DNA of 64,000 nt from a virus (Duplodnaviria; Caudoviricetes), in the IMG/VR virus record IMGVR_UViG_3300021400_001327, positions 32,001 to 96,000 of that record; one strand, written 5' to 3'. The notes below the pieces were generated by a model that was given only the letters and a program-made list of their open reading frames with translations, was not told where the DNA came from and ran no database searches. A program made the translations under genes and the position numbers. Shown one piece after another: positions 32,747-56,287 of this stretch (position 1 is the stretch's first letter; each line of letters starts with the position of its first letter).

Positions 32747-32768
32747 ATCTTGATTTTGTTAAACAATT

Positions 32769-32796
32769 AGCGGGGATGAAAACCACCCCGCTTTTT
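32769..32796 (+). terminator. Intrinsic terminator
   Basis: AGCGGGG/CCCCGCT stem followed by a T-run. Confidence 0.65.
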
Positions 32797-32813
32797 GTTT
32801 GGAAGGAGCAATC

Positions 32814-33551: not shown

Positions 33552-33710
33552 CGGCATCGGAGCCGAAATGAAATCCAATTCGGATTCCCCGACCGTGGTT
33601 CCCTGACTGAAAACCCACCCCATACGGTCAGCGGAGCCCGAAATGAATCTCGTTTTGGATTTCAGCGGCGGCTCTTGTGGACGAAAACCCACCCCGAAAG
33701 GAGACACACT

Positions 33711-35037
33711 ATGGAGAAACCCGTTGAATACATCGTCAGGGTTTACGACGGACCCGATACCTACGAGTATGAATACTCGAATCCAGAACACGCCAACGAA
33801 GCGCGGGACTGGGAGCGCGAACACGGCAACAGCGCCAGCCTCTTTGCCTACTACTGGGACGGCGTCAACCGTCGCGAAGAGTTTATCCGCTAATGGCGGA
33901 ACCAGAAAGGAGATTGAATCATGAGCAAGCAGTATTTCCCAATCACATCGGACCGGGATCAGACCATAAACTTCATGCGCGTTGACTTCGTCTACAACAA
34001 GGGCGGAATGAACGTCTGGACGTACAAGCGGGAGCCCCGTGGTTACTACCTGATGTTCACGCCGGTCCAGCGTGACGGAATCATGGAGGGCTTCACGGCC
34101 TTCACCGGCAAGAAGTACATCATCACTGAGGTCTCCAGGGCTTCCGCGAAAGCGGAACGGGAAGCAAAAGCTGAAGCTGACCAGTTCATCGAAGACATGC
34201 TGGAGCACGTTTGTGAACAGCTTGGCTGTCATCTGGTCAGAGAGGAGCAGGAATGAAAATCAGGTTTTATCAGGTGACGATGAATCGTCACTATGACTAT
34301 CCGGCTGCTGTGCCTGTGACGGAATCGGAAACCATTGTTAATCGCATCGGTCTATCACCCACCGTCAAGAATGTGAAGCGCTTCATCGAGCGTCACACAG
34401 ACCTTATGATCGACACCCGCTGGATGAGCGTCGCGGAGCAAATCCACGACGGTATGTCATGCGGGTACTTTTCAATCAACCTTGTGACCGGAACAGAATT
34501 TGAAACCTGTTCCATCGGATTTATGGAGGTGTAATCATGAAACGCTCGTTTGAATGGCATGGAAATAAATACTTCCTGCTCGGAACCGGATCGGACGGAG
34601 ATTATTATTGGCTCCAGGAGGCTTCGTTTGATTGTGGCTGGTACTGGAGTATCGGCTACATAGAAACATTCACGAATAATAAAGCTCCGTGGAGGAGCGC
34701 AGATATAGCCAGTCACAGCCATTTTAAGTACATGATGGAACGCCAAAAAAACGACTTTGGCGGACCAATGAATTGGTATGACGCGTTCCGTGCCGTTTTT
34801 CATGAGACGCCGCTGACGGATTCAGAAGTATGGACCGTGATAGAAATCATGAGGAGCCTGTACACGGCGCGTGATTACTCGGATATGCTTTACCATGGCG
34901 GATCGTATTACACCAGAAACCCTGTCGCAGAAACCATAAAGAACGCAGCGGAATACGGGCGGATCAACAAAGTGGTCATCCCTGCCTTGCTCGAAAACCT
35001 GTACAAAATCTTGGACGGAACAGGAAAGGAGAACTAA
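33711..35037 (+). other. Four small hypothetical genes (33711-33893, 33921-34256, 34253-34534, 34537-35037)
   Basis: Each has a strong RBS; tightly packed. Confidence 0.7.
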
Positions 35038-35039
35038 CC

Positions 35040-35420
35040 ATGACCGAAGTCTATCGCCAGACCGGCGCCTATGCCCGCGAACACAATGAGCTCGACCAGT
35101 ACCGCGAATCGTATCGGCTCAACCAGGAATGCAAGCGCGACATCGAGAAGGGCATCGCCGCCGCCTTCGACGGAATGCGCCTCGCTAACGGACCGGAGCA
35201 GGAAGTGCTCACTAAGTACGGCGCGGACCGTGTGTCCTACGTCCTCGCCAACACGCTTCAGGAACTGCGCTACGATGGCCGCTTCAGCCGGAGCAATAAA
35301 GAGTGGGCGAACGGAATCACAATTACACCCAGCGAAAACAACTGCTATCTGATCGTGAACACCCATCCCGCCGTGCTGGATGGATTCGTAAATAAGGTCC
35401 GAAAGATTATCGGACAGTGA
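35040..35420 (+). CDS. DUF3849-like protein
   Basis: YARE..EL..YR.S, YG..RV..VLANT, DGRFS..NK.WA, HP..LDGF. Confidence 0.75.
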   Translation: MTEVYRQTGAYAREHNELDQYRESYRLNQECKRDIEKGIAAAFDGMRLANGPEQEVLTKYGADRVSYVLANTLQELRYDGRFSRSNKEWANGITITPSENNCYLIVNTHPAVLDGFVNKVRKIIGQ

Positions 35421-36120
35421 AAGGAGAACGGAATGGATAATCAATCGCATTTCAAATGGGAACTGACCCGCGATGAACTGGACACCATCTGGTGGGCGCT
35501 GACCGAGCGCGAAACATCCATGCGGAAGAAAGCCGAGCGTGTACACAACGGCGAGAAACTGGGTTGCACGGAAGCAGAATATCACAGCATGGCCAACAAA
35601 TGTTTAGACTTGTACGGCCAAATCAATCGTATGCGGAACCGCTACTGGTAAGAAAGGAGACAAAAACCATGACTATTAAGCGCGACATCCTCGGAACCGT
35701 AATCGAAATCAAATTATCTGAGCAGGAAGTGCTCGCCGCCCACCGTGCCTATCTGGAACAGGAGCTCGGTAAGATGAGCGCTCCTCTCCCCCAGCCCACA
35801 AAGTGTGAGATGACTCAGAAGCCACAGCCGGACTGCAATCCAAAGCTTGTTGTCGCTGTGGCCGTAGGGCAGGAACCTGAGTATATACAGAAACTGTGGG
35901 AGTGCAGGGCAAAACTCGAAGAGGCACCGTACACATCAAAACGTTGTTTGGTGCTGGATGCTTACGTTCCGTATATGGCAGCAGCGCATAAAGCAGGGCT
36001 GTCTGGAAATAAGATTGCGCAAATACTCGGCACTTGCCCGTTAACAGTTCTGAAACGTCTTGATTCTATTCGTCGAGGGAATACTTTCGCCGCCTGACGG
36101 ACTCAGAAAGGAGAGAGCGT

Positions 36121-36486
36121 ATGGGTTACTACACAAGTTATAACATGGACGTAAACAACGTTAAGAGTAAAGCGGAACACGATGCGCTTTATGATGCGCT
36201 TAGAAAGAAGAACATTATTGGATATGCCTTCTATGGCGGAGACTGGGATAAGCATAACTCATCCTCGTTCTGGTGCAGCGAATGCGTTAAGTGGTACGAC
36301 CACGATGAAGACATGCTTGAGATCAGCAAACAGTTCCCGGAAATGACGTTCAAACTGATCGGAACAGGCGATGATGACGATGATCGCTGGTACACGCTGT
36401 ATCGTAATGGCGAATTTGAAACGGTAAAGGCCGTACTGACCTGGCCGGAACCAAAGCGGATTAAGTGGAAGGAGTTATGGAAATGA
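36121..36486 (+). CDS. Hypothetical protein (paralogue of 38280-38651)
   Basis: Shared YT.Y.M.V, IGY.F and S..FP..TFKL...G...D.W. Confidence 0.7.
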   Translation: MGYYTSYNMDVNNVKSKAEHDALYDALRKKNIIGYAFYGGDWDKHNSSSFWCSECVKWYDHDEDMLEISKQFPEMTFKLIGTGDDDDDRWYTLYRNGEFETVKAVLTWPEPKRIKWKELWK

Positions 36487-37053
36487 AAATCGTTTATCAG
36501 GTGACCGTAACGGACGAAGATGTCAGACAGAACGTAATGGACGTTATTGATGAAATGGAAGGTGAAATCGAGTTTCACAACGACGATGAGAAGTCCAACT
36601 TTATCACAGACTGCACTGAGAACATCTGCGATAAATACGAAAGCGAATATTGGAACCACGAATTGTCGTACATGGACTATGAAGAAGAAGTCCTGGATTT
36701 GGCAAGGGAATATGGAATCAGGAAGGACTGACGATGAGAGCGAAGGATTACCTGAAGCTCAATCGGACGGCAGCGGTCGAGCTCCGGGCGCTTGATGAGT
36801 ATTTACTGAGGCTGTGCGGAACAGCATTTGACTGGAGATTCGTCAACATGTACGACATCCCTCTTCTGGCCGGAACGATAAACGGACACGAGTTCCTCGT
36901 GAACCTCAGCCTGCCGATGAAGAAGGTGAAATACTGGATCGATGGAGCCGTAAAGGAGAGTGATGACTATCACGGCTTCAGCGAAGAAGAGCTCGCAATC
37001 GAAATCTCGAACTGGTCCGGCAGGAATTTCTTGTATGAAATCGAATCTCTTAT

Positions 37054-37742
37054 TTGACATCGGAGCCCAAAACGAATTAGGATTATGAAGGGAGTGGAGT
37101 AAATGAGAGCGTCGGACTGGGGAATACTAATCTTACTCGTTATCCTCTTTGGCCAATACTACTACAGGATGAACAAAGCACAGAAGGATCTGTTTAAGGA
37201 ACAGGCGATAAAGTATCAATTGCTCCCGAAGTACGGTGTGTTTGATCAGCACACAATAAAGAATTATCTGAGCAAATTTGCAGAGCCAGGAGTCAATGTG
37301 TACTTCGGCAGCCTGCAAAATGTCGCGCAGAGTGTTCCGATGATGCGGCTCGGATCGATTGACACTGCGATGAGAAAGTACTATAGCTGGTACGGGTTCC
37401 TGTATATCGCAATGTACATCATGTATTATCAGGATTCTATGCCGCAAATCGCCAGACGGATGGCGCACGAGCTTGAGAAGTACTGGCCGGAAGGAATGAC
37501 ATGGCGAAAAGCCACGAAGTACTTAACGGAATTAAATCAACAAGAGATTTATGAACTCGGAAACAAAGCTACCTACTATGCAAAACTATACATGACGCTT
37601 CCGCCGGAAATCCAAGCGAAACTCGATGACAAAAAACAGCGAAAGAAGTTCCTGAAAGAAGAAGGAATAATCTAACGGAACCACAATTGAATATGGATCG
37701 TTACGAAGTATGAGGACTGTCTGGAACGGCAGTCCTCTTTAA
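37054..37742 (+). other. Moron-like unit: promoter, membrane-anchored ORF 37103-37675, terminator
   Basis: TTGACA-18-TAGGAT; N-terminal TM helix; GAGGACTG/CAGTCCTC stem plus TTT. Confidence 0.6.
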
Positions 37743-38279
37743 TTACGAAAGGAGACAGACGGAATGGTAACAAACACATTCGGGCTGAAGATGGACGGCC
37801 TCGCTCAGGCCGCAGCCGCCACCGAAGATTATGGTTGGCGCGGACTCAGATACAACGAACTCTTCTACAATATGCGGACCGGTAAGGTGTGGCTGGTCAA
37901 GCAGACCAGTCTGAACCAGGCCGCCTGTACTAAATATGATAACCCCAGCATCGTGAAGATTGGCAACCTGACGGACCAGTATACAGAACAGAAACTGGCG
38001 GTAAGGATTTACCGTGGGCTCATCAAACAGGGGAGGATCAGAAAATCATGAAAAAGATGTCTGAGGTCTATGCGGAACTGGTCGCCGCGATGCCGTCGGA
38101 AGAAATCGACCATCATGAGTCGGACCTGTATGTGAAAGCCACGCCGGTCAGTAGTCGGATCATCAAAGAGGCTGATATCCCCCACGGAATGGTGGAACGG
38201 TTTGTAGACCAAATTACAGGAACCGTCTGGTACGACCTTGCGTTTGCTTACATGCCCTTCTGGGCGGAAAGGATTTAAT

Positions 38280-38651
38280 ATGGCAGATTACACTCGTTAC
38301 TCTATGGAAGTCGACGGAATCAAAACCGATGAAGAACTGAAGGCGTTTGAGGACAAGCTCAAAGAGCTCGACCTTATCGGATACGTCTTCGATGAAGGTC
38401 CTTGGAAAGCAAAGAATGGTATTTACCAGTGGGGACATTACGATGAGCAGAACTGGACGACATGTGAGGAAACGATGATGCTTCTCAGCAGGACATTTCC
38501 GACCTTCACCTTTAAGCTCATGTGCTACGGTGAGGGGATTGACGACAACTGGGTGCTGTATATGAAGAACAACGTTTGGCAGTGGGTTAAAGCGGAATGC
38601 GTTGCCCCTGCTCCCGACTGGGCGGAATGGCGCGGCGACTGGAAAATGTGA
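38280..38651 (+). CDS. Hypothetical protein (paralogue of 36121-36486)
   Basis: Same shared motifs as its paralogue. Confidence 0.7.
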   Translation: MADYTRYSMEVDGIKTDEELKAFEDKLKELDLIGYVFDEGPWKAKNGIYQWGHYDEQNWTTCEETMMLLSRTFPTFTFKLMCYGEGIDDNWVLYMKNNVWQWVKAECVAPAPDWAEWRGDWKM

Positions 38652-38664
38652 AGGGAGAACCGGA

Positions 38665-38994
38665 ATGACATTTGAAGTGAAAACCCGCTGGGCTGTAACG
38701 CCTGACTGTTACCTGAGTGTTGGCCAATATGAACGCGGCAAGCACATCGCCATCAGCATCTGGTCTGAATCGGAAGGACCGTTCGCTGACCTGACCGTGA
38801 ACCTCGACAAGGTCAAGCGGTTCCCGAGGAACTACGCTTTCGTGGACGTGAACAATTTTCCAGAGGCTGAAGCCATGATCAAACAATTGGGCATTGGAAC
38901 ACGAATTGAAAACGAATTCGGTTTCAGCGGATACTGCGCTTACCCGCTGTATCAGTTCGATGAAGAAGCAATTAAGAAATGGATGGAGGGATGA
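38665..38994 (+). CDS. DUF4313-like protein
   Basis: PFADLTVNL, AFVD.NN, SGYC.YPLY.FD. Confidence 0.75.
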   Translation: MTFEVKTRWAVTPDCYLSVGQYERGKHIAISIWSESEGPFADLTVNLDKVKRFPRNYAFVDVNNFPEAEAMIKQLGIGTRIENEFGFSGYCAYPLYQFDEEAIKKWMEG

Positions 38995-41900
38995 AAATGA
39001 CTATCGGAGATTTGGCGGACGTATATCAGGGACACATGGTGGTTATGGGAGCGGACAAGATAACGCTCGCAGACACGATCCGTGACCACGGGGATTTGCC
39101 GTTCGACCTTATCAATGTGCGGATTGAAGGACTCTTGCCGCTGAAATATCCAAGCGGAGAGTTTTATATTGAAATCACTGTCGACCTGTAACGAAAGGAG
39201 ATAAGAAGTATGGAACTGGAAGTCAAAACAAAGCTCGGAACCCTGATGGCCTCTGCGGACGGAGACGTCAGTTATCCGGGAATCATGATATATCTTGTGC
39301 GTGACGACGGAATGAGAATACTGTATGCCTGGGTCGAAGTCGACGAGACAGAAGCGGAACCAGTGCTGAAGGTGCATGCGTTCAACAGCTACGACGACGA
39401 GCCAGAGTTTGATTTGGACCAGACAGCGGACGACATCAATAATTATGGAGAGGAGACGGAATAATGAAGAGGTATCGGATTGAGTTTAACGGCGTGATTG
39501 AGATTGAAGCCGAGGACGAGGACGAAGCGTGGTCGACCTTTGGATGTATGTCCGACGAAGAAGTACGCGGGAACATCAGCTACATCGATGTAGAAGAGGT
39601 TGAGTAAGGAAGGAGCGATAATCGTGAAAAAGATTCAGTTTGGACTGACGGAAGAGCAGATGCTGATCACGAAGGGATGGACGGTTGTGCCGTCTGACAG
39701 CAACGACCCCACGCAGCCCGTGCTGTTCATCCCGCCGCTTGAGTCGGACGAGCGTCCGTTCATTAAAATGTCCGATGGAACCAGAATCAACGTCACAGCC
39801 AATATGTGCGACGCCATCTACCGCTACGTGGATCGGGAGTCTGCCGCCGATGATTTGAATTACTTCACGAACGATAAGTATGAGGGCGGCGAGTTCATTG
39901 AGCATAAGGACGAGATTGAGGAATGCAAGGAAGATATCATCGACAACTACATTGAGCGCCGGAACGGAGCGGAATCGTGGTGGGATGATATGCGCGACAG
40001 CATCAAGTATTCACTGGGATTGTATTAAGGAAGGAGCGATAAACATGAAACCGTTTAAGGAACTCAGCCGTAGAGAGCGCATGAACGAACTGCTGGTGCA
40101 TGTAAACCAGATCATGCATCGTATCTATCCAGACCGTGAACTCTGGGTGGACTACGTTAAGCCGGACGAGGAAAGCATCAAGACCTTCAGCGACTGGACT
40201 CAGAAGAGACTTGGAATTCTGACTGGAGATGAATACCTAATCGTCAGCGAAGGGCCCCGCATGGAGAGTGTCCTGTACGCCGTGAATATTTCGGCGGACT
40301 CAGAACTCACGGCGATGGACGAACTGTTTCATCTGCTGAGTTATAAGTTTTAAGGAGCGTTGTGATGGATGGTAACGGATACGCCATCTTTTCATATGAA
40401 AGATGGCGTGATGGTATGCAGGATAGGCCGGAGCCCGAAACAATGAGTCTTGAAGACCTGGTCTCCGAACTGATTAAATGGTTGCCGAAGGATGAGCACC
40501 GCATATGGAGCTATGACGGAGACGAAATTCTGTGTGAGACTGAACAGCTTGCTGAAGACATCGCCGACTTCATAGATGCGCTCTATGGCACACCTGTAGC
40601 AAACACAGGATACTACGCCCCAGAAGAGGATGCGCGGAACGGCGAAACAGACCAGCAGACCGGCTGGTATTATGTGACGATAGATTAAGGCGGAAGGAGA
40701 AAATGATATGACGTTATTTGGTGGATATGAGTGCAAGACGACTTTCTGGAACGACTTCGAGATTGCAGAACGATTCGGAAAAGATGCTCTGATGGACACC
40801 TTCAACAGGGCGTTCGGTGAGTGGAAGAACAACTACATCTACCTGACAGAATTGGTCATGGTGATGAACCACAAGCTGTGGTACTGGTACGAGAAAAAGC
40901 ACGATCACCCATATGTGGAACTGTACAACGTTTTCTACGATAAGAGCTCATGCTATGCGGAAGAGAATCTGAAAGGCAATGAGCTCAGCTACTACTACAG
41001 GACGACAGACTGAAAGGAGAATCGTTATGAAGTATCGCGAATACAAGAAAGAATACATCGGCGAATCCGACAGCGCTGTACTGGTGGTGCTGTCTCAGAC
41101 ATATGACGGGGCGCTCGAAGCGGCGCCGCTGAAGTTTGGTCAGGACCACGCATACAGCGCATATATCGTGGACCAGCACTGCGACCCGCCCCAGCTTGAG
41201 GGATGGAACCTTGAGATCATCAGGATTGGCGCTGGTTGGTTCAGAATCTACGACGACCACGAGGGAATCGTGATGCAGAAGGATTTTGATAACGTGCTCC
41301 GCATTTACCGGCGCGGCGAGATGGGCTGCATCATCCAGGCGTATTGAGAGGAGTTAAACATGAAGTATATCGACTATATGGAACAGCATCCGAAAGAGAA
41401 CATGAGTTGGTGCAGGCCGTTCCTGTCAGATGACGGACACGCGCTTGCTCTCAACGAGGGCGACCCAACCTGCCGCTTCCCAGACGGGGCAATAGGCGGG
41501 CAGGAACTGATGAAGCGGTTTGCAATGGAGGTCAATCCATCATATGATTTATACAGCGGATGGGATGACATTCATATAGCGCTCGAGTGCATGCACGAAG
41601 TCGGCTGCGTGGACTGTCCGTTTGCCGACATGTGCGAAGTGATGAACGATGAACTGGAGGGATGAGGAATGAATAAGGAGCGCAGGAAGCAGTTACAGGA
41701 AGTGATCAACAAGATTTCCGAAGCGCACGACCTGCTCGACGAGATATTGAGTGACGAGCAGAACGCCTTCGACAATATGCCGGAGGGGCTCCAGTCTTCG
41801 GAACGCGGTGAGACTATGGAAGAAGGCATCTACAACATGGAAGAGGCGCGTGATAACCTCGAAGACATTACCAGCACACTCGAAGAAGTAATGGGATAGG

Positions 41901-42595
41901 AGAGATGAGCGATGACGGAAGACACTTATATCAAGTGTATTGACGGTAAATGGTATGCCTTTGCGGCAGACACAAAGGATTGGAAAGCATATTCGATTGG
42001 TAGCGACAATCCGAGCAGAGGCAGAGACGGCACGCGTTGGGTGGCGCCACTGAACGACAGTGGAATCAAATATGTGGCTATCTGGTCGACGTCCAGAAGC
42101 GGCGCTTATCAGAAAGCCCGTCGGAATGGCAATTACTGCGGCGAAATGAAATGGTAAGGAGACAACACCATGACGAAGCTCACGAAGGAAGAGGCCAAGA
42201 AGGAACTGTTCGATGCGCTGAACATTGACCATCCAATCATCTTTCATGTCTACGAGACCGACATTACGGACGGATATGTGGTGGGATCGGGGATCATCGG
42301 AGCGCCCGATGACCTGTACGACACAGACCGCTTCTACGATATCGGATATGATAACCACGACGTGGAAGAAATCCATGTCGACAGCATCACGACCTACATG
42401 ATTGGTGATGGTGGGGATAGCGAACATGCTGACTCCAGCGATTGCGCTGTCATAGAGGATATGCTGAACAACCGACGGACAGCTGGCGGACTGATGGAGT
42501 TCCTTGAACACGACGCCGACGTCATCTCTGATTGTGGCGCTGGGTATGTGGACAACCCGTGCTATGAGCCTGAAGACGACGATTACGACATATAA
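38991..42595 (+). other. Run of ~12 small, mostly acidic hypothetical genes
   Basis: Co-oriented ORFs of 45-140 aa, each with an AGGAG-type RBS. Confidence 0.7.
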
Positions 42596-42652
42596 TAGGA
42601 AGAAACCCATGCATGCTTTATCCAATGGATAGAAACGGAAGGAGATTTGATT

Positions 42653-43216
42653 ATGAAGATAGTATTCTCAGCGGAAACATTCAAGAGAATGATGAAGGTT
42701 TGTTCGTCGGCAGTCATCAAGAAGGACGATGGCCGAAGAATGCTCCAGTACATCTGCATTGATGTTGGTTACGACGGAACATTTACTGCGTGTGGTGTGA
42801 ACGGGCATGAGCTTGCCAAGTATAGAGGGGCATGTGAGGCTGACGGAGAGGGACGTGTCTTCATTAAGCCGGTCAAGACGCCAAAGGACGCGACCAGGGT
42901 CGTGGTCGACGGTACAGATGGAACAAGGACCATTGTTGAGTATCAGATGTACAGCCGCGCCATTTACACAGAGGTACAGGTGGTCGATAAAGGCGAGTTT
43001 ATCGCTTACGACAATGTGATTCCTAAACCAGAGGAGCGAGATGTTCTTTCGATTTCGGTCGATCCGAAAGCCATGATTGAGTTAATGTCTGGCCTGAAGG
43101 ACTTTAAGTCTATAAAGATGTCCTTCAGAAGACCGATCGACAGCATCCTGATTACACCGAATCATTACACGGAAGGCGAAGTCACTTGCGTCCTGCTACC
43201 AATGCGTGTCGCTTGA
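42653..43216 (+). CDS. Truncated beta sliding-clamp-like protein
   Basis: R.ML.YI.I, A...NGH.LA, F..Y..VIP, C-terminal VLLPMR as in DnaN. Confidence 0.65.
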   Translation: MKIVFSAETFKRMMKVCSSAVIKKDDGRRMLQYICIDVGYDGTFTACGVNGHELAKYRGACEADGEGRVFIKPVKTPKDATRVVVDGTDGTRTIVEYQMYSRAIYTEVQVVDKGEFIAYDNVIPKPEERDVLSISVDPKAMIELMSGLKDFKSIKMSFRRPIDSILITPNHYTEGEVTCVLLPMRVA

Positions 43217-43250
43217 TGGCGGCAGACCATGATTGATACGTCTTAGCGAT

Positions 43251-43753
43251 TTGACAGGCCGAAATAGTATATGTATACTGTGTATCGAAAGGAGGTCGGT
43301 TTGAAATGGAAGTTAAAGACCCCGGAAATCTGCTGATACCATTTGATAAGGTTAAAGAACTGGTCCATGACAAACTTGTTAAAACACTCGACTTAAGGGC
43401 AGATGTTAACAGTGATGTTCTCAGAGCATTGGAATTGTTCTTTCTCGAACTGGAGATGCAGCTCTATGTGGATGACATCTGGAACCCAGACTGGCGGCTC
43501 GATTACCTGGAGGGCGTCATCGATTTTGTAGAAGAAGCGAAATTGGTCACAAAAAAGCAGGCACAGTGGCTGCGCCAATACCATGACTGGATCGTCGGGA
43601 ACGATGACATGTTTGGCGACGTGGAGGATTACAGGAAGGCACTCGGAATCAAAACCCCCATTCGATATCCGGAAAAAGAAGAAGACGCAGAATAACAGAA
43701 TATGAAAGGAGCCGCATAGCGGACGCACGGTGAAAACTGTGCGTGTTTTTTTT
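43251..43753 (+). other. Moron-like unit: promoter, ORF 43306-43695, terminator
   Basis: TTGACA-17-TATACT; AAAGGAGG; GCACGG/CTGTGC stem plus T-run. Confidence 0.7.
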
Positions 43754-43756
43754 ATT

Positions 43757-44275
43757 ATGACGATAACGATGATTGTGGATGGCGTGGAACATAATGTCAA
43801 CCTGAGCGAAGAGCAGGTGCAGCAACTGCTGGATACAGCGGGACGTCAGCCATATGCCCGTGTCGGGTACGGCGAGACGTATTACTATCTCGATAATCTT
43901 GGCGACGTCAAAACGACGGACGACATTGAATCAAGTGCAGACGACAGGTTGTATGATTTTGGCAATTACTGGGCGAACAAGAAAACATGCGAGGATGATG
44001 CCAGAGCGGACATCTTGCTCAGACAGCTCCGTAGGTTCGCTATGGAGAACGGCGGTTACTTCGACAAAGACACAGACGACCTGATGTTGTCATGGTGTTT
44101 GGAACCGGCGGACAAGCCATCATTGAAAGAGGTGCGCATCTATAAGCGATACACGAGTCGCGTCGGAATGGTGGGCTTCGCTTCATGGGATGCTGCGCGA
44201 GACGCTTTAACGCAGTTCCGCGACGAAATCATCTGGTATCTGTACACCTACCTGCCGAGCAAGGAGATGAAATAA
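43757..44275 (+). CDS. Hypothetical protein
   Basis: GETYYYL..D.RLY..GNY pattern common in Bacillota phages. Confidence 0.65.
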   Translation: MTITMIVDGVEHNVNLSEEQVQQLLDTAGRQPYARVGYGETYYYLDNLGDVKTTDDIESSADDRLYDFGNYWANKKTCEDDARADILLRQLRRFAMENGGYFDKDTDDLMLSWCLEPADKPSLKEVRIYKRYTSRVGMVGFASWDAARDALTQFRDEIIWYLYTYLPSKEMK

Positions 44276-45356: not shown

Positions 45357-46332
45357 GTGCATAAAAATTAGTGGTGATTGCTTTGGGCAGAAAGAAATTA
45401 GAGACGCCGGAAAAATATTGCGAGAATTGTGGGAAGAAGTTGGAGAGAAGACCTTTAAAGAATGGATACTTAGAGCCATTATTTCACTTCAACAAGAGAA
45501 AATACTGTTCAATACAGTGTTGCAGTGCTATGCAATCGAGGGAAAAGCTCCTGTGCCCACCAAAGACAGCAAAGACGAGCAGACAGAGGGCGAGAAAGAT
45601 TGTAGAGCAGGGAACGTGTGTGATGTGCGGGGCGCAAACACGGACAGAAGTGCACCATATAGATCACAATCCTATGAACAATACGCCAGAAAATTTGATG
45701 AGATTGTGTTCCAAGTGTCATCACGCCCAGCACAAAAACGACCGACAGAAACCTTTATGTGTTGTTTGCGGGGAGCCGCAGAAGGGGCACCATTTATGCT
45801 CAAAACACTGGCAAGCATGGAGAAAGAGCTTAAAAAGAGGATGGGATACAGAATACACATTGATGATAAAACAATGTTTGATAGATGCGGGGCTGTGAGC
45901 GTCTGGGATGCCCGTGGGAATGGCGACGGAGAGACTTCTCCTACCATCACAGGCGACCACAACAACAGGATCACCGACTACACCGCCGTCATTGTGGAAT
46001 CGAAACCGAGCACCCACTACTTCTCTATGCAGCGCTTCGATGAATTCAAGGAGAGCGATGCGGCGTCCACCCTCAAACAGCGGGACTACAAAGACGTGAC
46101 AGATATCGTGGTCGAGGAACGAGAACCAATACAGGAACGCAAGTACATCGTCCGGCGGCTGACGCCCACGGAAAGCCTGAGTCTTAATGGTTTGCCGAAA
46201 TGGTGGTGCGATGATGTGAAAGGCCGTTCGGATACAGCGGTATATAAGCTGTCCGGAAACGCAATAGCGATTCCGTGTGCTGTAGATGTGTTGGAAAAAA
46301 TCGAACGGGCTTACAGGAGAGATTTGAGATGA
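44962..46332 (+). CDS. Methyltransferase second polypeptide (alternative-frame beta-like segment plus motifs IX-X)
   Basis: AAGGAG 7 nt before ATG; SSLSQILE..KYYL..GILRRA..RGK.LP; RRLTP.E; YK..GNA. Confidence 0.7.
   Translation: MPQTTGIQGLQSGKTLAAPLAPTMEQTSKPSSKRSVRSQEPTFMYLSLKSTKEGGQKPEPSWEMVSRLPGVSTTPSVGAFPSVERESSLSQILEVNVPEKYYLTARASLGILRRAWKRGKNLPEVLNNALVECIKISGDCFGQKEIRDAGKILRELWEEVGEKTFKEWILRAIISLQQEKILFNTVLQCYAIEGKAPVPTKDSKDEQTEGEKDCRAGNVCDVRGANTDRSAPYRSQSYEQYARKFDEIVFQVSSRPAQKRPTETFMCCLRGAAEGAPFMLKTLASMEKELKKRMGYRIHIDDKTMFDRCGAVSVWDARGNGDGETSPTITGDHNNRITDYTAVIVESKPSTHYFSMQRFDEFKESDAASTLKQRDYKDVTDIVVEEREPIQERKYIVRRLTPTESLSLNGLPKWWCDDVKGRSDTAVYKLSGNAIAIPCAVDVLEKIERAYRRDLR
45371..45898 (+). 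CDS. HNH endonuclease nested in a different frame of the MTase ORF
   Basis: CVMCG..EVHHID.N..NN..ENL..LC..CH...H plus extra Zn fingers; likely start TTG 45383. Confidence 0.85.
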   Translation: MVIALGRKKLETPEKYCENCGKKLERRPLKNGYLEPLFHFNKRKYCSIQCCSAMQSREKLLCPPKTAKTSRQRARKIVEQGTCVMCGAQTRTEVHHIDHNPMNNTPENLMRLCSKCHHAQHKNDRQKPLCVVCGEPQKGHHLCSKHWQAWRKSLKRGWDTEYTLMIKQCLIDAGL

Positions 46333-48449
46333 ACAATTACAATTCAGGAGTAATGGATTTATGGCATGCACTGAAAATGGTTTGGCAGGAGATGCCGACC
46401 TCCGCCGTTTGCGGGATGTTTGGTTGGGGTGAGTCATACGATTTTGATTTCGATGATGTCCTTTGTGAAGATCCGATGACCATGATAACAAAGGTCAAGG
46501 AATACGAACAGAGAAAAAACCCGACAAAGAAACAGGTCATCGCGGCGCTGAAGTGCCTCGGCAACCCAGAGTCGGACTCGTGGGATTATAAGAAATGCTT
46601 AGAAACAGGGTGTCCGTTCGCCAGTAATGAGGATGGATGCGCGGCGCCTATCACACAAAGCCTCTTCAAGTATTTTCCAGAGCTTTGTGATGACGGCGCT
46701 GATAAACCTGTCAAAGCCCGCCCAATAAAAAAGCATGAGTTGTCGTTGTTGAAGCCCGGAGATAAGGTCTGGTGGACACTGTGTGATTGTGAACAGAAGC
46801 CGGATTGTGAGACTATCACCTATATCAACAAGAACATCATACGCTATGAGCCCGGTCATGGATTTGACGTCGTCGATAATTACGCAAAGGAGAATGGTTT
46901 TATTCTGTGGTATGACGAGCCAACAGAGGAAGACATCGACGGTGTCGATTTGAAAGGATTGCGCGATGACTGATAACGGGATGCCTGACAGGGAGAAGGT
47001 TATCAGGGCCGTTGAAACTTGTTTTGATAGCTGGATTGATAAGCACCGGAACATAGGTCTTGATTTGCATGAAGTCGAGCGGTTGAAACGAGAAGCGCTG
47101 GAGATGCTGAAAGAGCAGGAAGCTGTTGAACCAAAACTTGTCGATGTAAACACATGGACTTGTGGTGAATGTGGTGCGTTGATCGGTTGGGAGGAATTTG
47201 CACAGTCAGGATTGGAACTGGTCAAGTACAAGTTCTGCACGGAATGCGGAAGGGCGGTGAAATGGGGATGACATATTCTTCGATTGAAAAAATCCGACCG
47301 AAAGCGAGTATCCAATGGGACAATGGCAACGACGGGCGGGATGGGCGTTATTATATCGAATATCGCTGCCCCGTGTGCGGTCGAAGGATATTCTATTATG
47401 GGCGCGATAACGCATGTGATCAGTGCGGAACATTTTACGATTGGGGAAAGCGTGAACCAGTCATCGAAATAACGAGGTGCGTGAAATGGGATGAGTGACC
47501 AATATAATACAGACGGGATAATGGTTTTCCAAAAGGCAAGTCAAAGACCTGTAACAGATAACGCCTTTGAAAGCATTGAACGCGCAATAGCGTTTGACGT
47601 GAGAGACTGGTCTCAAGACCGGAGAAGTGCATGGATCTATGCCATCGTGTTCGGCTGGGAGTACGAGGACGCCTGGGATGAAGTGGCTAAGAAATTCGGC
47701 TGGGATGAAGAAGACCGTAAAAGAGCACGCTCACTGCATGTGCAATGGGAAATGGCAAAGGCGGTGAAGTGGGATGCCTGACCGGGAAAGGGTCATTTAC
47801 GATCTTGAACGATGTACGTGCCACGTTCCGGACGCTTGCCGGGATTGCTCAAAATACGCCAGCGGAACCGTGATGAAATGCATGGAAAGCCTGATGATGG
47901 ACGCGTTGGAACTGCTGAAAGAGCAAGAACCAGTTAAACCAACAGTCAACGTTGATACTTGGATTTGTTCCGAATGCGGTCATACATTAGAAAGTCAAGA
48001 ACTTATTGATGACAATGAGAATCCTCAGGTGCTTATCCATGAGCAATATAATTATTGCCCGAACTGCGGAAAGGCGGTGAAGTGGGATGAGTGAATACAC
48101 AGGAGGGCCGCTTGACAGATTAGCCGATTTGTTCATGAGAGCACTGAGAACGGATGACCCTCAAACGAAAGCCAATTTAATCAATGAATGGAACGAAGAA
48201 ATCAAGTTTATCAATTCTGTATTAAAAGGATGGTGAAGTGTGATGAATGAGTACAAAGAAGGACAGTATATCATTTACCAGAACGGCGATAGATTCGAGA
48301 TCGGGAAGATCAAGCGCCTCACGCCGACCGGCGCGTTTGTATGGTACTCATGCGGTGATACTGCTGCAAATACCCCGTATGACTGTATGCACCCGATCCA
48401 GAATGCTTATGTGATCGGCGAGACAGGGCTTGGAGGGTGTATGACATGA
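46329..48449 (+). other. Small genes joined by a GGCGGTGAARTGGGATG junction motif
   Basis: ORFs 46966-47271, 47268-47498, 47491-47781, 47774-48094, 48087-48236 and 48240-48449. Confidence 0.7.
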
Positions 48450-48832
48450 GGCTGATTGATGCGGATGCACTGAAAAAGGAATGGAGCATGGGCCTTGGAT
48501 CATGTAATGATTGCCCACAGAACACGAGAAGATGTCAATTAGACATGGATTTTACGCGAATGGATATTTGCGGGATGATTGACGATGCTCCAACCGTTGG
48601 CGGCTGGATCAGCGTTAAGGACAGATTGCCGGAAACACGTCATGCTGTACTTGTGTACACGCCGCATTATAAAAACATATGGGCGGCTTCAATGCACGAA
48701 GACGGGAATTGGTGTATATGGTCACCACACAGCGGAGTATATTTGGACCCAGATTGGCACGGGCCGATCACCCATTGGATGCCGCTGCCAGAACCTCCAA
48801 AAAGCTTAAATAGGAGTTTATATTATGGATAA
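48446..48832 (+). CDS. DUF551-domain protein
   Basis: MRLIDAD, WISVKDRLPE, THWMPLPEPP. Confidence 0.85.
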   Translation: MRLIDADALKKEWSMGLGSCNDCPQNTRRCQLDMDFTRMDICGMIDDAPTVGGWISVKDRLPETRHAVLVYTPHYKNIWAASMHEDGNWCIWSPHSGVYLDPDWHGPITHWMPLPEPPKSLNRSLYYG

Positions 48833-50470
48833 TTGCCCTATCTGTAAGTTGAAAATTGGCGAAAAAACAGTTCAAAGTCCAATTGCGCCGTCCCTGTGTT
48901 GGCTTGAAACAAGTCGAAGTAAAAACGGATATATCATTATGAAATTTGGATATGGCGACGATTATGAACACATTTTCTATAGCCCGCGGTATTGTCCAGA
49001 GTGCGGGAAGAAAAATGAGCCAGTTACCTAAATAGGAGTTTTGAACATGACCCGTAGAAACACATTTATACCGTTAGAAATTCAATGCTTCTGGTGTAAC
49101 GGGCAAATGGAAAGAGGGACGGTTATATCTGGTGAACTCAATTGCGTGACGTATTTTTGCGAGCGATGTGGTGGAGTATCACACTTCGCAGTAAATGACA
49201 AGCAGAGAATAAGCAGTATTGAAGTTGAGTATAAATCGCCAGACAAAGGGACTCAAATAGGAGGATAAGCGCGATGGATTGTCCGTGGTATTTAGGGTTT
49301 CAGGCCACAGAAGAATGCCTCAAAACATGCACCATCACAGAAGAAAACCGGGATTATTCGATATGCCCCGAAAGCACCAGCGAAGATGATGTTTATATGG
49401 ACATGGCTTAAAATAGGAGTTTGTATGATATATCACTTGAGCTGTCCATATTGCTTCCATCTTTGGTGGAGTAAAAATGGATTTCCTAAAAGATGTCCAA
49501 AGTGTAGAAAACAACTTAAATAACACTATTGATGGGTGGGTAAGATGAAAGCCAAACAGTATTTTGAAAAATACGGGGAATCAATCTGGAAAGAAGCCAA
49601 CGAGCCCGATGTTCATACTGATGGGCCGATAGCACAGATGTTCATCGAATTCGCATCTGAAATGAAAGAGATTATAACCCGCAGAAACGCGAAAACCGAT
49701 AATGCGGTAATGGCTATCATTTCAGAACAGAACCAAAAATGGAATTCAGTTGTCAATATGTTTGTGAAGCAATATGGAATTTCACCGATTTCAAGAGATG
49801 GATTCGCAAAAGGATTCAAACAACAGCTTGGAATTTAAATAGGAGTTTAGAATGGCTGATTATCACGTTGGTGCTGGCGAAATAACTGGAGAAATCTATG
49901 CTGGCGTGTTGTCGAAAGACGGCAAATCATGGAGAAACCGTTCGATTGTAACTGATGCGGCAATCTGTGCTGTACGGGATCATCTCATCAATCAAATGAA
50001 TCAAAGCAATCAAGATTGGTTTGGTTATGAGTGGTCACGAAAAGACGGCAAGAAGGTCGTATTGAGCATTGCAGTCAAATAATTTAAATCGGAGTTTATA
50101 GCATGAAAGCAATTATAAAATTTACCGCCTGTCTTGAATGTGATATTGATGACAAACTTCGAGACAAGATAGTTTCGAAAGATGAACAGGTCAAACAGCT
50201 AAAAAGCCTGTTAACGGAAGAATGCGATTGCGAGCAAGTTGAAATAAGCGAGTATCACGTAGAACTCAAATAGGAGTTTAAGCAATGAAGCGAACACCAC
50301 AAAATTGCACGGTTGCTGATAGAGTTTATTCCCGCGATGGACATGATAGGTACGTTGGCGATAAATGTGCTGGTGTACGGATTGCTGTTGGTTGGGATGG
50401 CGATGAGCCGATTGATACTTGTAAAAAATGCAAGTATTTCTATATGTTTGATGAGGATGAGGAAACTTAA
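48806..50470 (+). repeat. Mini-gene array delimited by AAATAGGAGTTT
   Basis: Seven copies between ORFs (see findings). Confidence 0.75.
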
Positions 50471-50473
50471 ATT

Positions 50474-51040
50474 ATGGATTTAGGAGCCTACGCACAGATT
50501 GAAAATATTAGCAAAATCATGACAGACAACGGAATCGCTGTTCCAAGACTGCGCGGACTCAGGCTGATGAGTCAGGAAAAAGCAATTTCTACAGACGAAA
50601 TTTCAGAGTCTGCCAATCAATTGGGCCTACAAGAATGTGAAGCTCTCTGCGAGTCAGACTTCCGACTAAACGCACACATTTTCGAATGTTCAAATAGAAC
50701 CCGCCGGATCAGGCGAAAATATCTGAAGTATGACGATGATCAATTCACGCCTGTCGGAGTTAGATGGGATCACATCCATGGCAAAAAGCGCAAGAAGTTC
50801 AAGTACGTTATCAAAGCCGCTTATCAGCGTACGCGTGAACAGCTTGAATTATTCAATCGCTATTGCGGCAGGCCTGATGTTCTCTACATCCACGCAAGAA
50901 TCGGTGGCGGAAACTGGCCGTATTACTGTAACGAGGTAAAGAATCAGCCGTGGTTCATCTGCAAAATCGACGATGCCTTTGATTCCACCTACTGCGACAT
51001 TTACGCCGCGATCAAACCGCCGGAGGAGAGCCATGGCTGA
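50474..51040 (+). CDS. Hypothetical protein
   Basis: PRLRG, YIHARIGGGNW, DD.FD.TYCDIY pattern. Confidence 0.7.
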   Translation: MDLGAYAQIENISKIMTDNGIAVPRLRGLRLMSQEKAISTDEISESANQLGLQECEALCESDFRLNAHIFECSNRTRRIRRKYLKYDDDQFTPVGVRWDHIHGKKRKKFKYVIKAAYQRTREQLELFNRYCGRPDVLYIHARIGGGNWPYYCNEVKNQPWFICKIDDAFDSTYCDIYAAIKPPEESHG

Positions 51041-51191
51041 CGAAGAAAGAGAGCAGAAGATTCATGAAGCGCTTCATGTCCACCATGACAAGGTAAAAGA
51101 AAAATACCATACGGTTATGACTGTTCCTTGTGGAAGCCAGAACTATAGGCTGGATACGGAAAGCAGTGATTATGACACTTTAGGAGCTTAG
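51033..51191 (+). pseudogene. Truncated nucleotidyltransferase
   Basis: GSQNY.LDT..SDYD (Pol-beta superfamily GS..DxD) followed by a stop after 4 codons. Confidence 0.6.
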
Positions 51192-52683
51192 AGGAGTAAA
51201 AATGGCACAGATAAAGACTTTTCCAAGGGACTGTACGAAAAAATGCCCACACTATAAAACGTGGGATATGTCCGTGGACGACTGGACATCATACTGCGAT
51301 TTGCTGAAAGAGCAGGTTGATGATTGCGACGAGGATTACATTCGGTTTCGTTGTCCGCTGGATGCAACTGTGGAATATGCAGACCAACCAACATTGCAAC
51401 CAGCGACTTAAATTGAACCAAAGTCAACGAAAGGAGCTCGCGAGATATGTTGGAACGATTCTACAGATTCAGACACAAGCTATTCGATCTGATCGAGAAG
51501 GTGGATGATGGATATCATAAGAGCTATGAAGGAGCGATGGAAGTACGGTTCCACTACCCAAACATATTTGAAGATGAACCGGTAGAGAAGGTCGACTTTG
51601 TAGAAATCGAAGTGCATTGCTATCTGCTGATAAACGGACGGCACATCACGTTTGAGGGCAAGACGTTCGACGATGCTTTGGATAAAGCAGAAGCGTGGCT
51701 TGAGCGTGTGACGGAAGAGGAAGGTTTCTGATAATGATTCCACTGCTGCTCATTGGTTTTCTTCTTGTCGTTGTTGCTGGCGTCTGGCTGTTGATTATGA
51801 CGGACGAAGAAGCGTTCTGGTTATCAACGACGTTGCGGTCGCACGAGTCTGACTGATTCAAAAGGAGACAGAAATGGTGATCAATCCATCTACAGTTTAT
51901 TGGATGAACGTGCTGTGTCATGTGCGGGAAATCGTACAGGTACTGATGATATCGTCTGCTATTTTTTGCACGATATCGCTTATATGTGGTTGGATAATCG
52001 ATGACGAACAAGAAAAGGCATGGTGTCGGACCTTTGCCTGCATTATGGCTATCATCTGCCTCGTTATGATTTTCCTATACATATTCATACCGGATAAACA
52101 GACCCTGGCAGAGATCATGCTGGCCAAACACATCCGTGTTGATGAGACTGGGTGGACCCCAAAGCTGGTAAGAGAGACAGCGGATTACGTCGTCAAGGCG
52201 TTCAAGCAAATCAAGTGAGGTGTGTTATGAAGATAATCGATTTTGAGAAGAAAGGGAATGTCGTCAGGTTCTACCTCGGTCAGGATAATCTGGAAGACTG
52301 GTACGGCGATGACTGGAATGACAGGCCATACGAGTACAACGCCGGAACTGTGTACGATGAGTTTCTTGCTGGATACAGAGATATCGCGTTCGATTTTGAC
52401 TCGGTTGTTCTGGAGCCAAAGGATGACTATGAAAACCGCGGCAATTCAAAGTACTGTAAAGACGATATGCGGAACAGGGATGTGCCGTGCATCATTGTTG
52501 TGCCTGACGATGTTATTGAGGACAATTGTTGTAGGGATGAATTCAATAGGTACGTTGGCAGCGACCGTGTAACAAAATTCTACTTTGGCGACAGGATGGA
52601 GCCTGACTATGTATACGATGCTCCACCGAAGCGTGATGAAAACTATAGGCTGATCGCAAAACCGGCCAACGGGGGTTGATAAA

Positions 52684-53586
52684 ATGCAGGAAGTGAAGCA
52701 CAACGGAATCACCAAGTATATCTACCAGCGTCTTCTGGCCTTCATCGGAAACCCGTATGGGGTCGCCGGATTGATGGGCAACCTCTACGCGGAATCAGGT
52801 CTGCGCTCTGACAACCTTCAGAACAGCTTCGAGCAGAAGCTCGGTATGACAGACGAAGAGTATACAGACGCCGTCACGAACGGCACGTATACGAAATTCG
52901 CCAACGACGGTGCTGGATACGGCTTGGCGCAGTGGACCAATAGTGCCCGGAAACAAAATCTGCTTGGTCTGTCGAAAGCGATAGGCGCGGCCATTGACAG
53001 TGTGGAGATGCAAATCATTTTCCTGATCCTTGAGCTCCAGAATTACTCACTCGTATGGAACGTCCTGACAAAAACGTCAAGTTCGTATGAAGCGTCTGAT
53101 GCGGTATTGGAACACTACGAGAAACCGGCTACGATAACTGACTCCTCGCGGGACAACAGGCGTTCGTTCAGCGTACAGTACTATCAGCTGTATGGGAGCG
53201 ATGAAAAAATAGCTTACAGTAATGATGAATCTGTCATGTTTGCTGGTGTGCTGAAGCGTGGAAGTCGTGGTGCTGATGTCAGGACGCTCCAGCAGCAACT
53301 GAAAAGGCTTGGCTATGCTGGCGGAACGCTTGCTGTGGACGGTGCATATGGAGAGAAAACGGGAGCGGCTGTCAGTGAGTTTCAGAGGGATTACCACCTG
53401 TACTCTGACGGAAAAGCTGGGGCTGTCACACAGTATGTGCTCAAGCTTCAAGAGCGTGATGGATCGAGATACACAGTTGTGATTGGCAACCTCGATTTCA
53501 CAAGCGCAATGGAGCTTTATCACAAGTATAAAGACGCAATCATCAGAGAGGGACATGTCGATGCAAAAAATTCCGACTTTGTTTAA
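52684..53586 (+). CDS. Phage lysozyme-like protein with peptidoglycan-binding domain
   Basis: AGLMGNLYAESG, GYGLAQWT, YEKP; LKRGSRG.DV..LQ..L..LGY..VDG.YG..T..AV..FQ. Confidence 0.85.
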   Translation: MQEVKHNGITKYIYQRLLAFIGNPYGVAGLMGNLYAESGLRSDNLQNSFEQKLGMTDEEYTDAVTNGTYTKFANDGAGYGLAQWTNSARKQNLLGLSKAIGAAIDSVEMQIIFLILELQNYSLVWNVLTKTSSSYEASDAVLEHYEKPATITDSSRDNRRSFSVQYYQLYGSDEKIAYSNDESVMFAGVLKRGSRGADVRTLQQQLKRLGYAGGTLAVDGAYGEKTGAAVSEFQRDYHLYSDGKAGAVTQYVLKLQERDGSRYTVVIGNLDFTSAMELYHKYKDAIIREGHVDAKNSDFV

Positions 53587-54154
53587 GCGCGAGTTTATCG
53601 ACCGCCATGTTGTTAAAATTCTGCCGGAAGTCACGCCTGGGCTGGAATGGGTGTTGCTTGGCGGCGGTATCCCCACGGTCAAGTATGACGGCGCCTGCTG
53701 CGCGATCATTGACGGTGTGTTCTATAAGCGCTATGACGCGAAACGGAACAAGGATGGCATCCAGAAGTCTCCCCCGCCGGGAGCTATTCCGTGCTGCGAC
53801 CCAGACCCCGTGACCGGTCACTGGCCGCACTGGGTAAAGATAGACGCGGGGAAACCGGAAGACAGATGGTTCATTGAGGCTTACATAAACACGGGGCGCG
53901 ACCGTGAACTTACAGACGGAACGTATGAGGCCGTCGGTCCACACTTTCAAGGCAACCCGTATCACTTGAATTTTGAACACCTTATCAAGCACGGCGAGGA
54001 CGTTATCCGTCTTCCAGACCGTAGCTTTGAAGCTATCAAGGAATACCTGCAATGGAATCACATTGAGGGCATCGTCTTTTGGAAGGATGGCAAGCCGGAA
54101 TGCAAAATCAAACGTTCGGACTTCGGCTTCCCGTGGCCGATTCTTAAATGTTAA
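53561..54154 (+). CDS. RNA ligase-like nucleotidyltransferase (DUF5565-like)
   Basis: KIPTLF.R, KYDG, GTYE.VG..FQGNP, EGIV, KIKR.DF. Confidence 0.65.
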   Translation: MQKIPTLFKREFIDRHVVKILPEVTPGLEWVLLGGGIPTVKYDGACCAIIDGVFYKRYDAKRNKDGIQKSPPPGAIPCCDPDPVTGHWPHWVKIDAGKPEDRWFIEAYINTGRDRELTDGTYEAVGPHFQGNPYHLNFEHLIKHGEDVIRLPDRSFEAIKEYLQWNHIEGIVFWKDGKPECKIKRSDFGFPWPILKC

Positions 54155-54363
54155 CGATTTGTTAAGTTGGTGTCCGCAAAAAGACTTAATTTGCGGACGT
54201 CCATAAAAATGGCAGGTCGGAATCATAAACGCCTGATAGCACACGATATTTGTGAGCAGGCTTTCTAAAAATAGCCGGACAAACCTGTCCTGTACAAACA
54301 CGCGGCTTGTCCGTTAACATAAATATGCGATCGCAAACGACGGAAAAAGAAGGAGAAGAGAGA

Positions 54364-55525: not shown

Positions 55526-56287
55526 ATGGAAAACAAAGAGGATATCATGTCGATGAACCTGTATCAACGTCTGGCGAAAGTCAGAGATATCGCTGACGTC
55601 GTGCAAAAGAACAAGTCCGGCTATGGCTACAAGTACACGTCGGAAGACGAGATTCTGGCCAAGGTCAAAGCTGGCATGACGAAGTATCGTGTATCTATCT
55701 ATCCAAGAGTGGACACGGAATGCTTCAATAGCCAGCCGCGCAACTACGAAAAAATGAAGTACGACAAGGCTGCTGGCAAGAACGTGACCACTACCGAAAC
55801 AGAATGGCTGGTGGACGGGACGGTCGTTTATTCCGTTATCAACGATGACGATCCTAACGACCGCTTTGAAGTGACGTGGCCTATCTGCGGTTCGCAGTCA
55901 GACAAAGCACAGGCGTTTGGCTCAGCGCTGACTTATGCCAATCGTTACTTCTACCTGAAGTTCTTCAATATTGCCACATCCGAGGACGACCCCGACGAGT
56001 GGAAGCGAAAGAAGATGGAAGCGGCTGACGCGGAAGACGAGGCCGCAGCCAAGGTGGTTGTGCAGAAAATCGACGAGCTCTGCCGTGGTGGAATCACCGA
56101 AGAGAACAAGCAAGACATCATCAAGCTGGTCAAGAAGTACGCCAGGGATGGCGGGAAACCGTCAGGTAATTACCTGCTGATCAAGAAGCTGGATGACGCT
56201 AATGCCCTGTACACGGAACTGCGGCAGTTCTTCGATGGAACGGGAACAAAAACCAAGAAGACCGAAAAGAAAGAGGAGGCCAAGTAA
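55526..56287 (+). CDS. ERF-family single-strand annealing protein
   Basis: KNK.GYGYKY, GSALTYA.RY, EDDPD. Confidence 0.85.
   Translation: MENKEDIMSMNLYQRLAKVRDIADVVQKNKSGYGYKYTSEDEILAKVKAGMTKYRVSIYPRVDTECFNSQPRNYEKMKYDKAAGKNVTTTETEWLVDGTVVYSVINDDDPNDRFEVTWPICGSQSDKAQAFGSALTYANRYFYLKFFNIATSEDDPDEWKRKKMEAADAEDEAAAKVVVQKIDELCRGGITEENKQDIIKLVKKYARDGGKPSGNYLLIKKLDDANALYTELRQFFDGTGTKTKKTEKKEEAK

Follow-up and report, generated by a model that had tools for sequence, protein, structure and literature searches.

Arrays of mini-genes joined by a short stop/Shine-Dalgarno linker, a probable junction for cassette exchange, in an uncultured ruminant-gut phage

In the stretch of viral DNA analysed here (the window, 64,000 nucleotides, G000:C1:32001-96000 of the IMG/VR record IMGVR_UViG_3300021400_001327), eight very small genes follow one another on the plus strand, and full copies of one short motif, which will be called the linker, stand before seven of them (Table 1; positions are those of the window unless they are given as genome positions). 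The genes of this array (array 1) code for 68, 73, 45, 32, 97, 76, 56 and 61 amino acids (aa), four of the products having CxxC pairs, and an initial annotation made from the letters of the sequence had rightly seen here a series of one-gene units, which it put at 32-100 aa. Recognised protein families are limited to DUF551, in the gene that borders the array, and DUF7446, and a search of the window array with Rfam gave no matches. The whole record, G000, is a phage genome of 107,314 bp with direct terminal repeats. Its DNA is matched in gut metagenome runs, and pieces of it in runs from goat and bovine gut, and we regard it as an uncultured ruminant-gut phage of 107 kb. Its gene set includes a fused primase-helicase, a PHP/PolIII-alpha polymerase, an ERF annealing protein, a ParB-like protein, an endolysin, a C5 methylase and two tyrosine recombinases (Phage_integrase matches). 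The best protein match of the primase-helicase has 36% aa identity and comes from uncultured faecal phages, with none closer among cultured phages, and the array itself found no match by blastn among 50,697 GenBank phage records.

The seven full copies of the linker span 48808-50279 and are on the plus strand in 7/7 cases, five of them reading exactly AAATAGGAGTTT and two being the variants AAATAGGAGGAT and AAATCGGAGTTT. They lie where the initial annotation had placed them, as do the partial CTTAAAT copies at 49515, 50466 and 51407. When two or fewer mismatches are allowed, the window has 10 matches as compared with 3.7 +/- 2.0 in shuffled sequences, none of 100 shuffles reaching 10; in the whole genome there are seven exact copies, all forward and none reverse, and a reversed control pattern gives no match. 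Over 38 instances from five phages the consensus is A-n-TTAAATAGGAGyTTAr, written as TTAAATAGGAGTTTA, with a core of about 17 nucleotides (nt). An unbiased analysis of the flanks of these instances restricts conservation to about -5 to +13 around the core, with none upstream of -5, and each position beyond the 12-mer used for searching (TT on the upstream side, A on the downstream side) has an information content of about 1 bit. An exact 14-mer scan of IMG/VR returned 115 loci, of which 108 have a single copy, and these are mostly single chance matches.

The linker carries stop codons in two of the three frames (TAA, TAG), the third frame being open, together with the Shine-Dalgarno core AGGAG and a U-rich spacer before the ATG. 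It had been proposed that the motif always supplies the ribosome site of the next gene and usually the stop codon of the previous one; the start side stands, since an ATG follows 2-7 nt from the end of each full copy, and the upstream stop falls within the motif in 4/7 copies (TAA at 49029, 49409 and 49836; TAG at 50271) and just outside it or downstream in the other three. Elsewhere on the arm the ribosome sites have a different context, mostly GAAAGGAGA, as was also noted initially. In the early operon upstream (32000-44000) the genes share an extended context (a/g)GAAAGGAGa, which is predicted to form more base pairs with a 16S 3' end of the Firmicutes type than the array motif would, and the two gene sets thus seem to differ in the design of their translation starts.

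Table 1. Features of array 1, its borders and the recombination genes of the phage (window positions unless stated otherwise)
Feature	Position	Strand	Remark
DUF551 gene, 128 aa	48446-48832	+	borders array; Pfam DUF551, E 5.5e-13
Linker copy 1, exact AAATAGGAGTTT	48808-48819	+	5 nt before ATG at 48825
68-aa cassette gene	48825-49031	+	zinc-ribbon-like, two CxxC pairs
Linker copy 2, exact	49030-49041	+	upstream TAA 49029-49031 overlaps its first two bases
73-aa cassette gene	49047-49268	+	family F3, CxxC-type
Linker copy 3, variant AAATAGGAGGAT	49255-49266	+	left end of 156-nt deletion joint
45-aa cassette gene	49274-49411	+	F4; missing from source-sample variant
Linker copy 4, exact	49411-49422	+	upstream TAA 49409-49411 overlaps its first base
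32-aa cassette gene	49425-49523	+	Cys-rich mini-protein
Variant junction CTTAAATAACAC	49515-49526	+	left half same, without Shine-Dalgarno
97-aa cassette gene	49545-49838	+	without full linker upstream
Linker copy 5, exact	49837-49848	+	upstream TAA 49836-49838 overlaps its first two bases
76-aa cassette gene	49852-50082	+	DUF7446, F1; Pfam E 2e-15; paralogue in array 2
Linker copy 6, variant AAATCGGAGTTT	50086-50097	+	
56-aa cassette gene	50103-50273	+	F5
Linker copy 7, exact	50268-50279	+	contains upstream TAG 50271-50273; sole perfect AACTC/GAGTT arms
61-aa cassette gene	50285-50470	+	Cys-rich
188-aa gene	50474-51040	+	no linker; single-gene mobile module
ERF-family single-strand annealing protein	55526-56287	+	Pfam ERF, E 5.1e-17
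Tyrosine recombinase	26656-27492 (genome 58656-59492)	-	Pfam Phage_integrase, E 1.3e-11
Second tyrosine recombinase / integrase	genome 825-1880		Phage_integrase match

A second array, which had escaped the initial annotation, lies outside the window at genome 100604-103160 with about 10 motif copies. Both arrays are low in GC (39.9% in array 1 and 41.4% in array 2, against 50.9% for the whole genome), and one cassette is common to them: the DUF7446 gene with its junctions (49835-50089) has 89% identity to genome 101060-101315, the homology ending at the junctions, and the rest of the array 1 region has no other repeat within the genome. Moreover, the full motif is found in array 2 (genome 100604 and 102528) ahead of two tRNA-shaped RNA units that are non-coding, and a variant lacking the Shine-Dalgarno part, AAATAACAC, which keeps the left half, precedes other non-coding units as well as the 97-aa gene at 49515; junctions of this 49515 type stand before non-coding RNA-like units both in array 2 and in relatives. 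In this one respect the motif is more than a ribosome site, as it also stands before units that are not translated.

As for the tRNA-shaped units themselves, they occupy genome 100616-100770 and 102540-102755 (L137:4616-4770 and 6540-6755), where they sit directly behind the linker, and they are also seen in L008-L010, L104, L125 and L131. Their 5' end, GCGGTGGCGGAAnAGGTAGACGC, resembles an acceptor strand with D arm, and their 3' end consists of GTGAGGTGCAAATCCTCAC and the other acceptor strand, with a variable insert of 60-160 nt in between; the acceptor stem covaries (GCGG/CCGC, GTGG/CCAC, TCGG/CCGA, ACGG/CCGT). Neither ARAGORN nor Rfam calls these units. Even with introns allowed, ARAGORN reported no tRNA in the window or in array 2, giving doubtful calls at lowered thresholds only, and Rfam gave nothing relevant for array 2.

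The comparison with related phages reveals how variable the arrays are. G001 is a relative of 116 kb, likewise with direct terminal repeats; it stays collinear with G000 from end to end (65-85% nt identity), and the region 46245-54286, which holds array 1, is matched there by an unalignable, motif-free stretch. Similarly, array 2 takes up 3.4 kb in G000 as against about 0.3 kb at the matching site in G001. The latter phage has an array of its own (2.3 kb, six motif copies), which separates its primase-helicase gene from that of the polymerase; in G000 the gap between these two genes is 10 nt (59523/59534). One 114-aa cassette is shared at 91% identity between array 2 of G000 and the array of G001, which is above the identity of the backbone.

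At the strain level, a 5.3-kb contig from another sample (L138), 97-99.5% identical to array 2, differs by four rearrangements: the 68-aa cassette of array 1 (48806-49041, motif to motif, 93.6%) is inserted behind the motif at genome 100604; cassette F7 is at the front rather than at the end; the motif at genome 102528 is followed by two additions, a new 36-aa gene and a tRNA; and 550 nt with two further cassettes are deleted. Of its internal alignment ends 7/10 fall in a motif, and at several junctions the flanking alignments overlap by the motif itself. The crossover positions vary, two junctions mapping within AGGAGTTT and a third after TAAATAG beside unrelated sequence, the last of which recurs in run X2, where it forms a loose end at window 49035. 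Altogether the arrays are rich in insertions and deletions between strains of 97-99% identity, and the motif-free backbone genes stay collinear.

Two RNA features of the same contig may be described here. The tRNA (L138:2755-2880) looks canonical, with an anticodon loop CTTATAA that is Ile-UAU-like by eye, and follows a linker copy that has the same spacer as the copy before the F6 cassette in G000 (genome 100875), which suggests that true tRNA genes also ride in these arrays. Another non-coding element, of about 95 nt (L138:391-486), follows the truncated motif TAAATAG.

Single cassettes are moreover shared with unrelated phages at 79-95% identity, with nothing else alike over 17-20 kb and with the homology running from motif to motif. 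For example, the F3 cassette (49029-49263) has 89% identity to L130/L047 (G003), where it lies between two motif copies and is the only shared sequence in 17 kb; the F5 cassette (50084-50272) has 79% identity to L129/L038 (G002), with nothing else in common nearby; and the F4 cassette, 80% identical to L125 and 95.7% to L141, has other neighbours in each. Following the families along the contigs, F3 is joined to F4 in G000 and to F9 in G003, and the order F9-F4-F2 is found in L125. The 3' end of the bordering DUF551 gene, up to the motif, has 87% identity to L113, in which a different cassette comes next; in G000 the DUF551 reading frame includes motif copy 1 and ends 8 nt into the next gene. 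For the DUF7446 cassette there are seven close homologues on other contigs, each with a different downstream neighbour, and the motif is upstream in 5/7 of them; homologues of 44% identity from another sample series have no motif, hence the motif seems to belong to the gene pool rather than to the DUF7446 protein family. In total, 11/24 homology ends against other phages lie inside the 15-nt motif interval, for a null mean of 1.07 (P <5e-5), although this null ignores that motifs are placed at gene boundaries.

Variation is also seen within the source sample and in other gut runs, in all cases as assembled contigs, in which a joint was counted when its shorter side had at least 30 letters. Contigs of both X2 and X4 join 49254 to 49411, the two sides sharing 7 letters and the shorter one in X2 being 68 letters long, so that precisely the 45-aa cassette is lost. 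In another contig of X2, at main depth, the DUF7446 gene is exchanged for 235 other letters. One contig from goat gut spans 50084-50281 with unrelated sequence upstream and one from bovine gut spans 50271-50472, both being single cassettes that break at motifs. Among these contigs the deletion joint was seen but no junction of an excised circle. If the contigs are assembled from 31-letter words, a 13-nt repeat should not yield such joints by misassembly. The exact 49254/49411 deletion junction has no match in IMG/VR or in JGI metagenome contigs. In silico, this deletion fuses the 73-aa and 32-aa zinc-ribbon-like genes in frame (49047-49523), because the third frame of the motif is open, and for the same reason fusion proteins could result from roughly a third of linker joins.

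From these results we consider it rather probable that the linker is a translation junction which doubles as microhomology for the exchange of cassettes, with no dedicated site-specific recombinase. The arrays would then be hyperplastic regions in which low-GC small accessory genes, and in array 2 small RNA genes also, are joined by a junction of about 17 nt. The compared contigs show that this junction is where single genes enter, are lost, are replaced or change place, between arrays, between strains and between phages otherwise without shared DNA, and having the same sequence at each boundary is what would let single genes be exchanged there. Judged from its position, the junction with its stop, Shine-Dalgarno sequence and spacer would end the upstream gene in two of the three frames and should start the translation of the next one. 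Meanwhile identical junctions would offer 8-17 nt of homology, upon which short-homology recombination, by ERF annealing or by template switching in replication, may act, followed by selection for intact genes. The ERF protein of G000 is possibly the agent of exchange and a plausible candidate for it; Erf-type recombinases act on diverged and short homologies (PMC3945230). A precedent for shuffling at conserved intergenic elements is given by the promoter-early stem-loop (PeSL) cassettes of T4-type phages (PMC2839356, PMC4122927).

Several points weigh against this proposal. A length of 13-17 nt falls below the minimum of about 30 bp quoted for Red-beta recombination (PMC3945230), so that one has to assume template switching or rare annealing. 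Random recombination followed by selection would likewise be expected to leave breakpoints at gene boundaries, and all the comparison material consists of metagenomic contigs. One junction lies in the middle of the motif with a partner that is not a motif (TAAATAG then caattt), and a tRNA-shaped RNA unit in common with L125 has no motif there. Furthermore, the 188-aa gene that follows array 1 moves as a unit with gene-exact ends without any linker: its counterparts in L008-L010, three phages of 108-148 kb that otherwise show no resemblance to G000, are 85-87% identical in nt sequence, and the homology is confined to 50471-51043. We had tried L008-L010 as syntenic relatives and rejected them, as the 188-aa gene alone is in common; in these phages (for example L008:9940-10760) it sits between two tRNA-shaped RNA units.

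This same gene, with mosaic ends that are gene-exact in the absence of the motif, would suit the explanation that the motif is a shared translation-initiation signal only, possibly read by a phage or host factor, which has no role in DNA exchange and travels with the genes, the shuffling being due to illegitimate recombination and selection. The constant place of the motif 2-7 nt before the ATG, on the coding strand only, is in keeping with such a signal, and so is its similarity to the SAS repeats of Cluster K mycobacteriophages, which have the ATAGGAG core and symmetric outer triplets (GGGATAGGAGCCC) at 3-7 nt before starts (PMC3203893). To judge from the sequence, the conserved T before AGGAG adds no pairing with the standard anti-Shine-Dalgarno; the same lack of extended pairing was remarked for SAS by Pope et al. 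(PMC3203893). Such a signal does not account for the motif before non-coding RNA units, which need no ribosome site (genome 100604 and 102528), for a deletion joint lying inside two motif copies with shared letters, for the overlap by the motif at several junctions of L138, or for the density of insertions and deletions in the arrays of strains whose motif-free backbone is collinear, and we hold it to be unlikely, though with an appreciable chance. Rather less credible is the opposite extreme, in which the junction would be the recognition site of a dedicated exchange machinery that moves protein and RNA cassettes between otherwise unrelated gut phages; if that were true, it would represent a phage "integron without integrase", and the mycobacteriophage SAS would be the GC-rich counterpart of the same device.

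Integrons proper were the model of the initial annotation, which read the array as integron-like, and one part of that description is kept: the gain, loss and reordering of genes that it predicted, with breakpoints at the motif, are found among relatives, gene content being variable and breakpoints coinciding with the motif. Like integron cassettes, the units are promoterless, co-oriented and of one gene each, and G000 encodes two tyrosine recombinases, of which that at 26656-27492 or the integrase at genome 825-1880 would cut the motif, with its partial dyad TTAAA-TAGGAG-TTTAA, to capture or excise circular cassettes. The mechanism does not fare so well. Sites of the attC type are imperfect palindromes of about 57-141 bp after each cassette, whereas the gaps between genes in the arrays, from -8 to 21 nt, leave no space for such hairpin sites and conservation is limited to about 17 nt. 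Both recombinases are more than 20 kb from both arrays, that at 26656-27492 being 21 kb away from array 1 on the other strand and kept in place in G001, whose array lies elsewhere. The best score of the two with an integron-integrase model is 44 bits for a cut-off of 265, and 26656-27492 is a weak Xer-type NCBIfam match (39 bits, cut-offs >220). The inverted arms AACTC/GAGTT, earlier compared with the core of a tyrosine-recombinase site, are perfect in 1/16 genome copies (that at 50268), as is the TTAAA/TTTAA dyad in 1/16, with no compensatory changes in the variants, so the geometry is not conserved, and the crossover points differ between junctions. In contrast to integrons, there is here no IntI, no attC hairpin and no single attI/Pc end, and there are several arrays per genome, all of which makes an integron-like mechanism very improbable. 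A hairpin that would present the Shine-Dalgarno sequence in its loop, with TTAAA/TTTAA as arms, was likewise set aside for the lack of compensatory changes and a very weak fold (best consensus fold -2.4 to -3.5 kcal/mol).

Two further explanations were considered. The enzyme RegB cuts GGAG in T4 early mRNAs, and the motif, with a GGAG core at each gene boundary of a long co-directional operon, might be an RNA-level cleavage or protection site of the RegB type on a polycistronic early transcript, the DNA rearrangements being incidental. This leaves the breakpoints unexplained, and Pfam models find no RegB/RegA homologue, a weak point as the control genomes are silent too; we give the idea very little credence. 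The copies could instead be functionless leftovers of local tandem duplication of one founder junction, in line with the one cassette duplicated between arrays and with the paralogous genes with a second repeated junction just upstream. The cassettes between the copies are unrelated in sequence, however, and unrelated genes have this motif at their borders in at least five phages and in several studies, so that this origin also seems highly doubtful.

Among known systems, PeSLs are the closest in behaviour and SAS the closest in form. PeSLs (Arbiol et al. 2010, PMC2839356; Comeau et al. 2014, PMC4122927) are, like the linker, short conserved elements that lie between genes, concentrated in hyperplastic regions and placed just ahead of small genes of unknown function, at which insertions, deletions and replacements between close relatives break, and in neither case has a dedicated recombinase been identified; their authors themselves draw the comparison with integrons (PMC2839356, PMC4122927). 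They differ in that a PeSL consists of a sigma-70 promoter and a stem-loop terminator, each cassette being its own transcription unit, whereas the 13-17 nt found here (stop, Shine-Dalgarno, spacer) have no room for a promoter or hairpin, and the cassettes would accordingly depend on read-through transcription. In fact, promoter-like sites in 44-55 kb number 14 compared with 14.4 in shuffles, that is, without enrichment, and a scan for terminator-like sites shows no enrichment either. Moreover, the phages belong to an unrelated lineage, RNA genes are found among the cassettes of G000, and mini-circles have been shown for PeSLs, whereas the present arrays are known from contigs alone.

The SAS (Pope et al. 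2011, PMC3203893), whose function is still open in PMC12699233, are asymmetric repeats of 12-13 nt with the ATAGGAG core between complementary triplets (GGG/CCC there, AAA/TTT here). They too stand a few nt before the ATG (3-7 in SAS) in one orientation, only in the non-structural half of the genome and upstream of genes of different families, with the upstream stop sometimes within the repeat. On the other hand, SAS are read as translation signals and cassette shuffling has not been claimed for them, half of them have extended 17-bp inverted repeats (ESAS) that are absent here, and their consensus GGGATAGGAGCCC differs from TTAAATAGGAGTTTA in the outer triplets, as do host phylum and phage group. 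The linker model of Botstein and Campbell (summarised in PMC2839356) also has modules exchanged through short conserved flanks that ensure placement and expression, yet it concerns larger functional modules of lambdoid phages, whereas in the present arrays a module amounts to one mini-gene and its linker is a translation junction.

It is an old question whether the mosaicism of phages at exact gene boundaries comes from linker-guided exchange or from random recombination and selection, and documented linkers are few, PeSLs being the main case. The present locus provides a compact natural test case, with one junction, two arrays, a collinear relative whose array is elsewhere, a strain of 97-99% identity with four rearrangements, and the deletion of a single cassette within one sample. 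In addition, small RNA genes travel in the same arrays, and the SAS motif of mycobacteriophages gains a look-alike in an unrelated phage group. On the practical side, the motif marks sites of accessory-gene exchange among ruminant-gut phages, and the genes so marked may serve host takeover or anti-defence.

Finally, a second repeated junction is observed upstream of array 1 in the window region 47241-48250, where GGCGGTGAAGTGGGATGAGTGA-like sequences occur in 4-5 copies (47481, 47764, 48077, 48233, and also 47241). At these junctions the upstream gene ends in AVKWDE before its stop, which overlaps the next ATG. The repetition is partly explained by paralogous genes (46966-47271 and 47774-48094), and several short contig joints fall in the same region.

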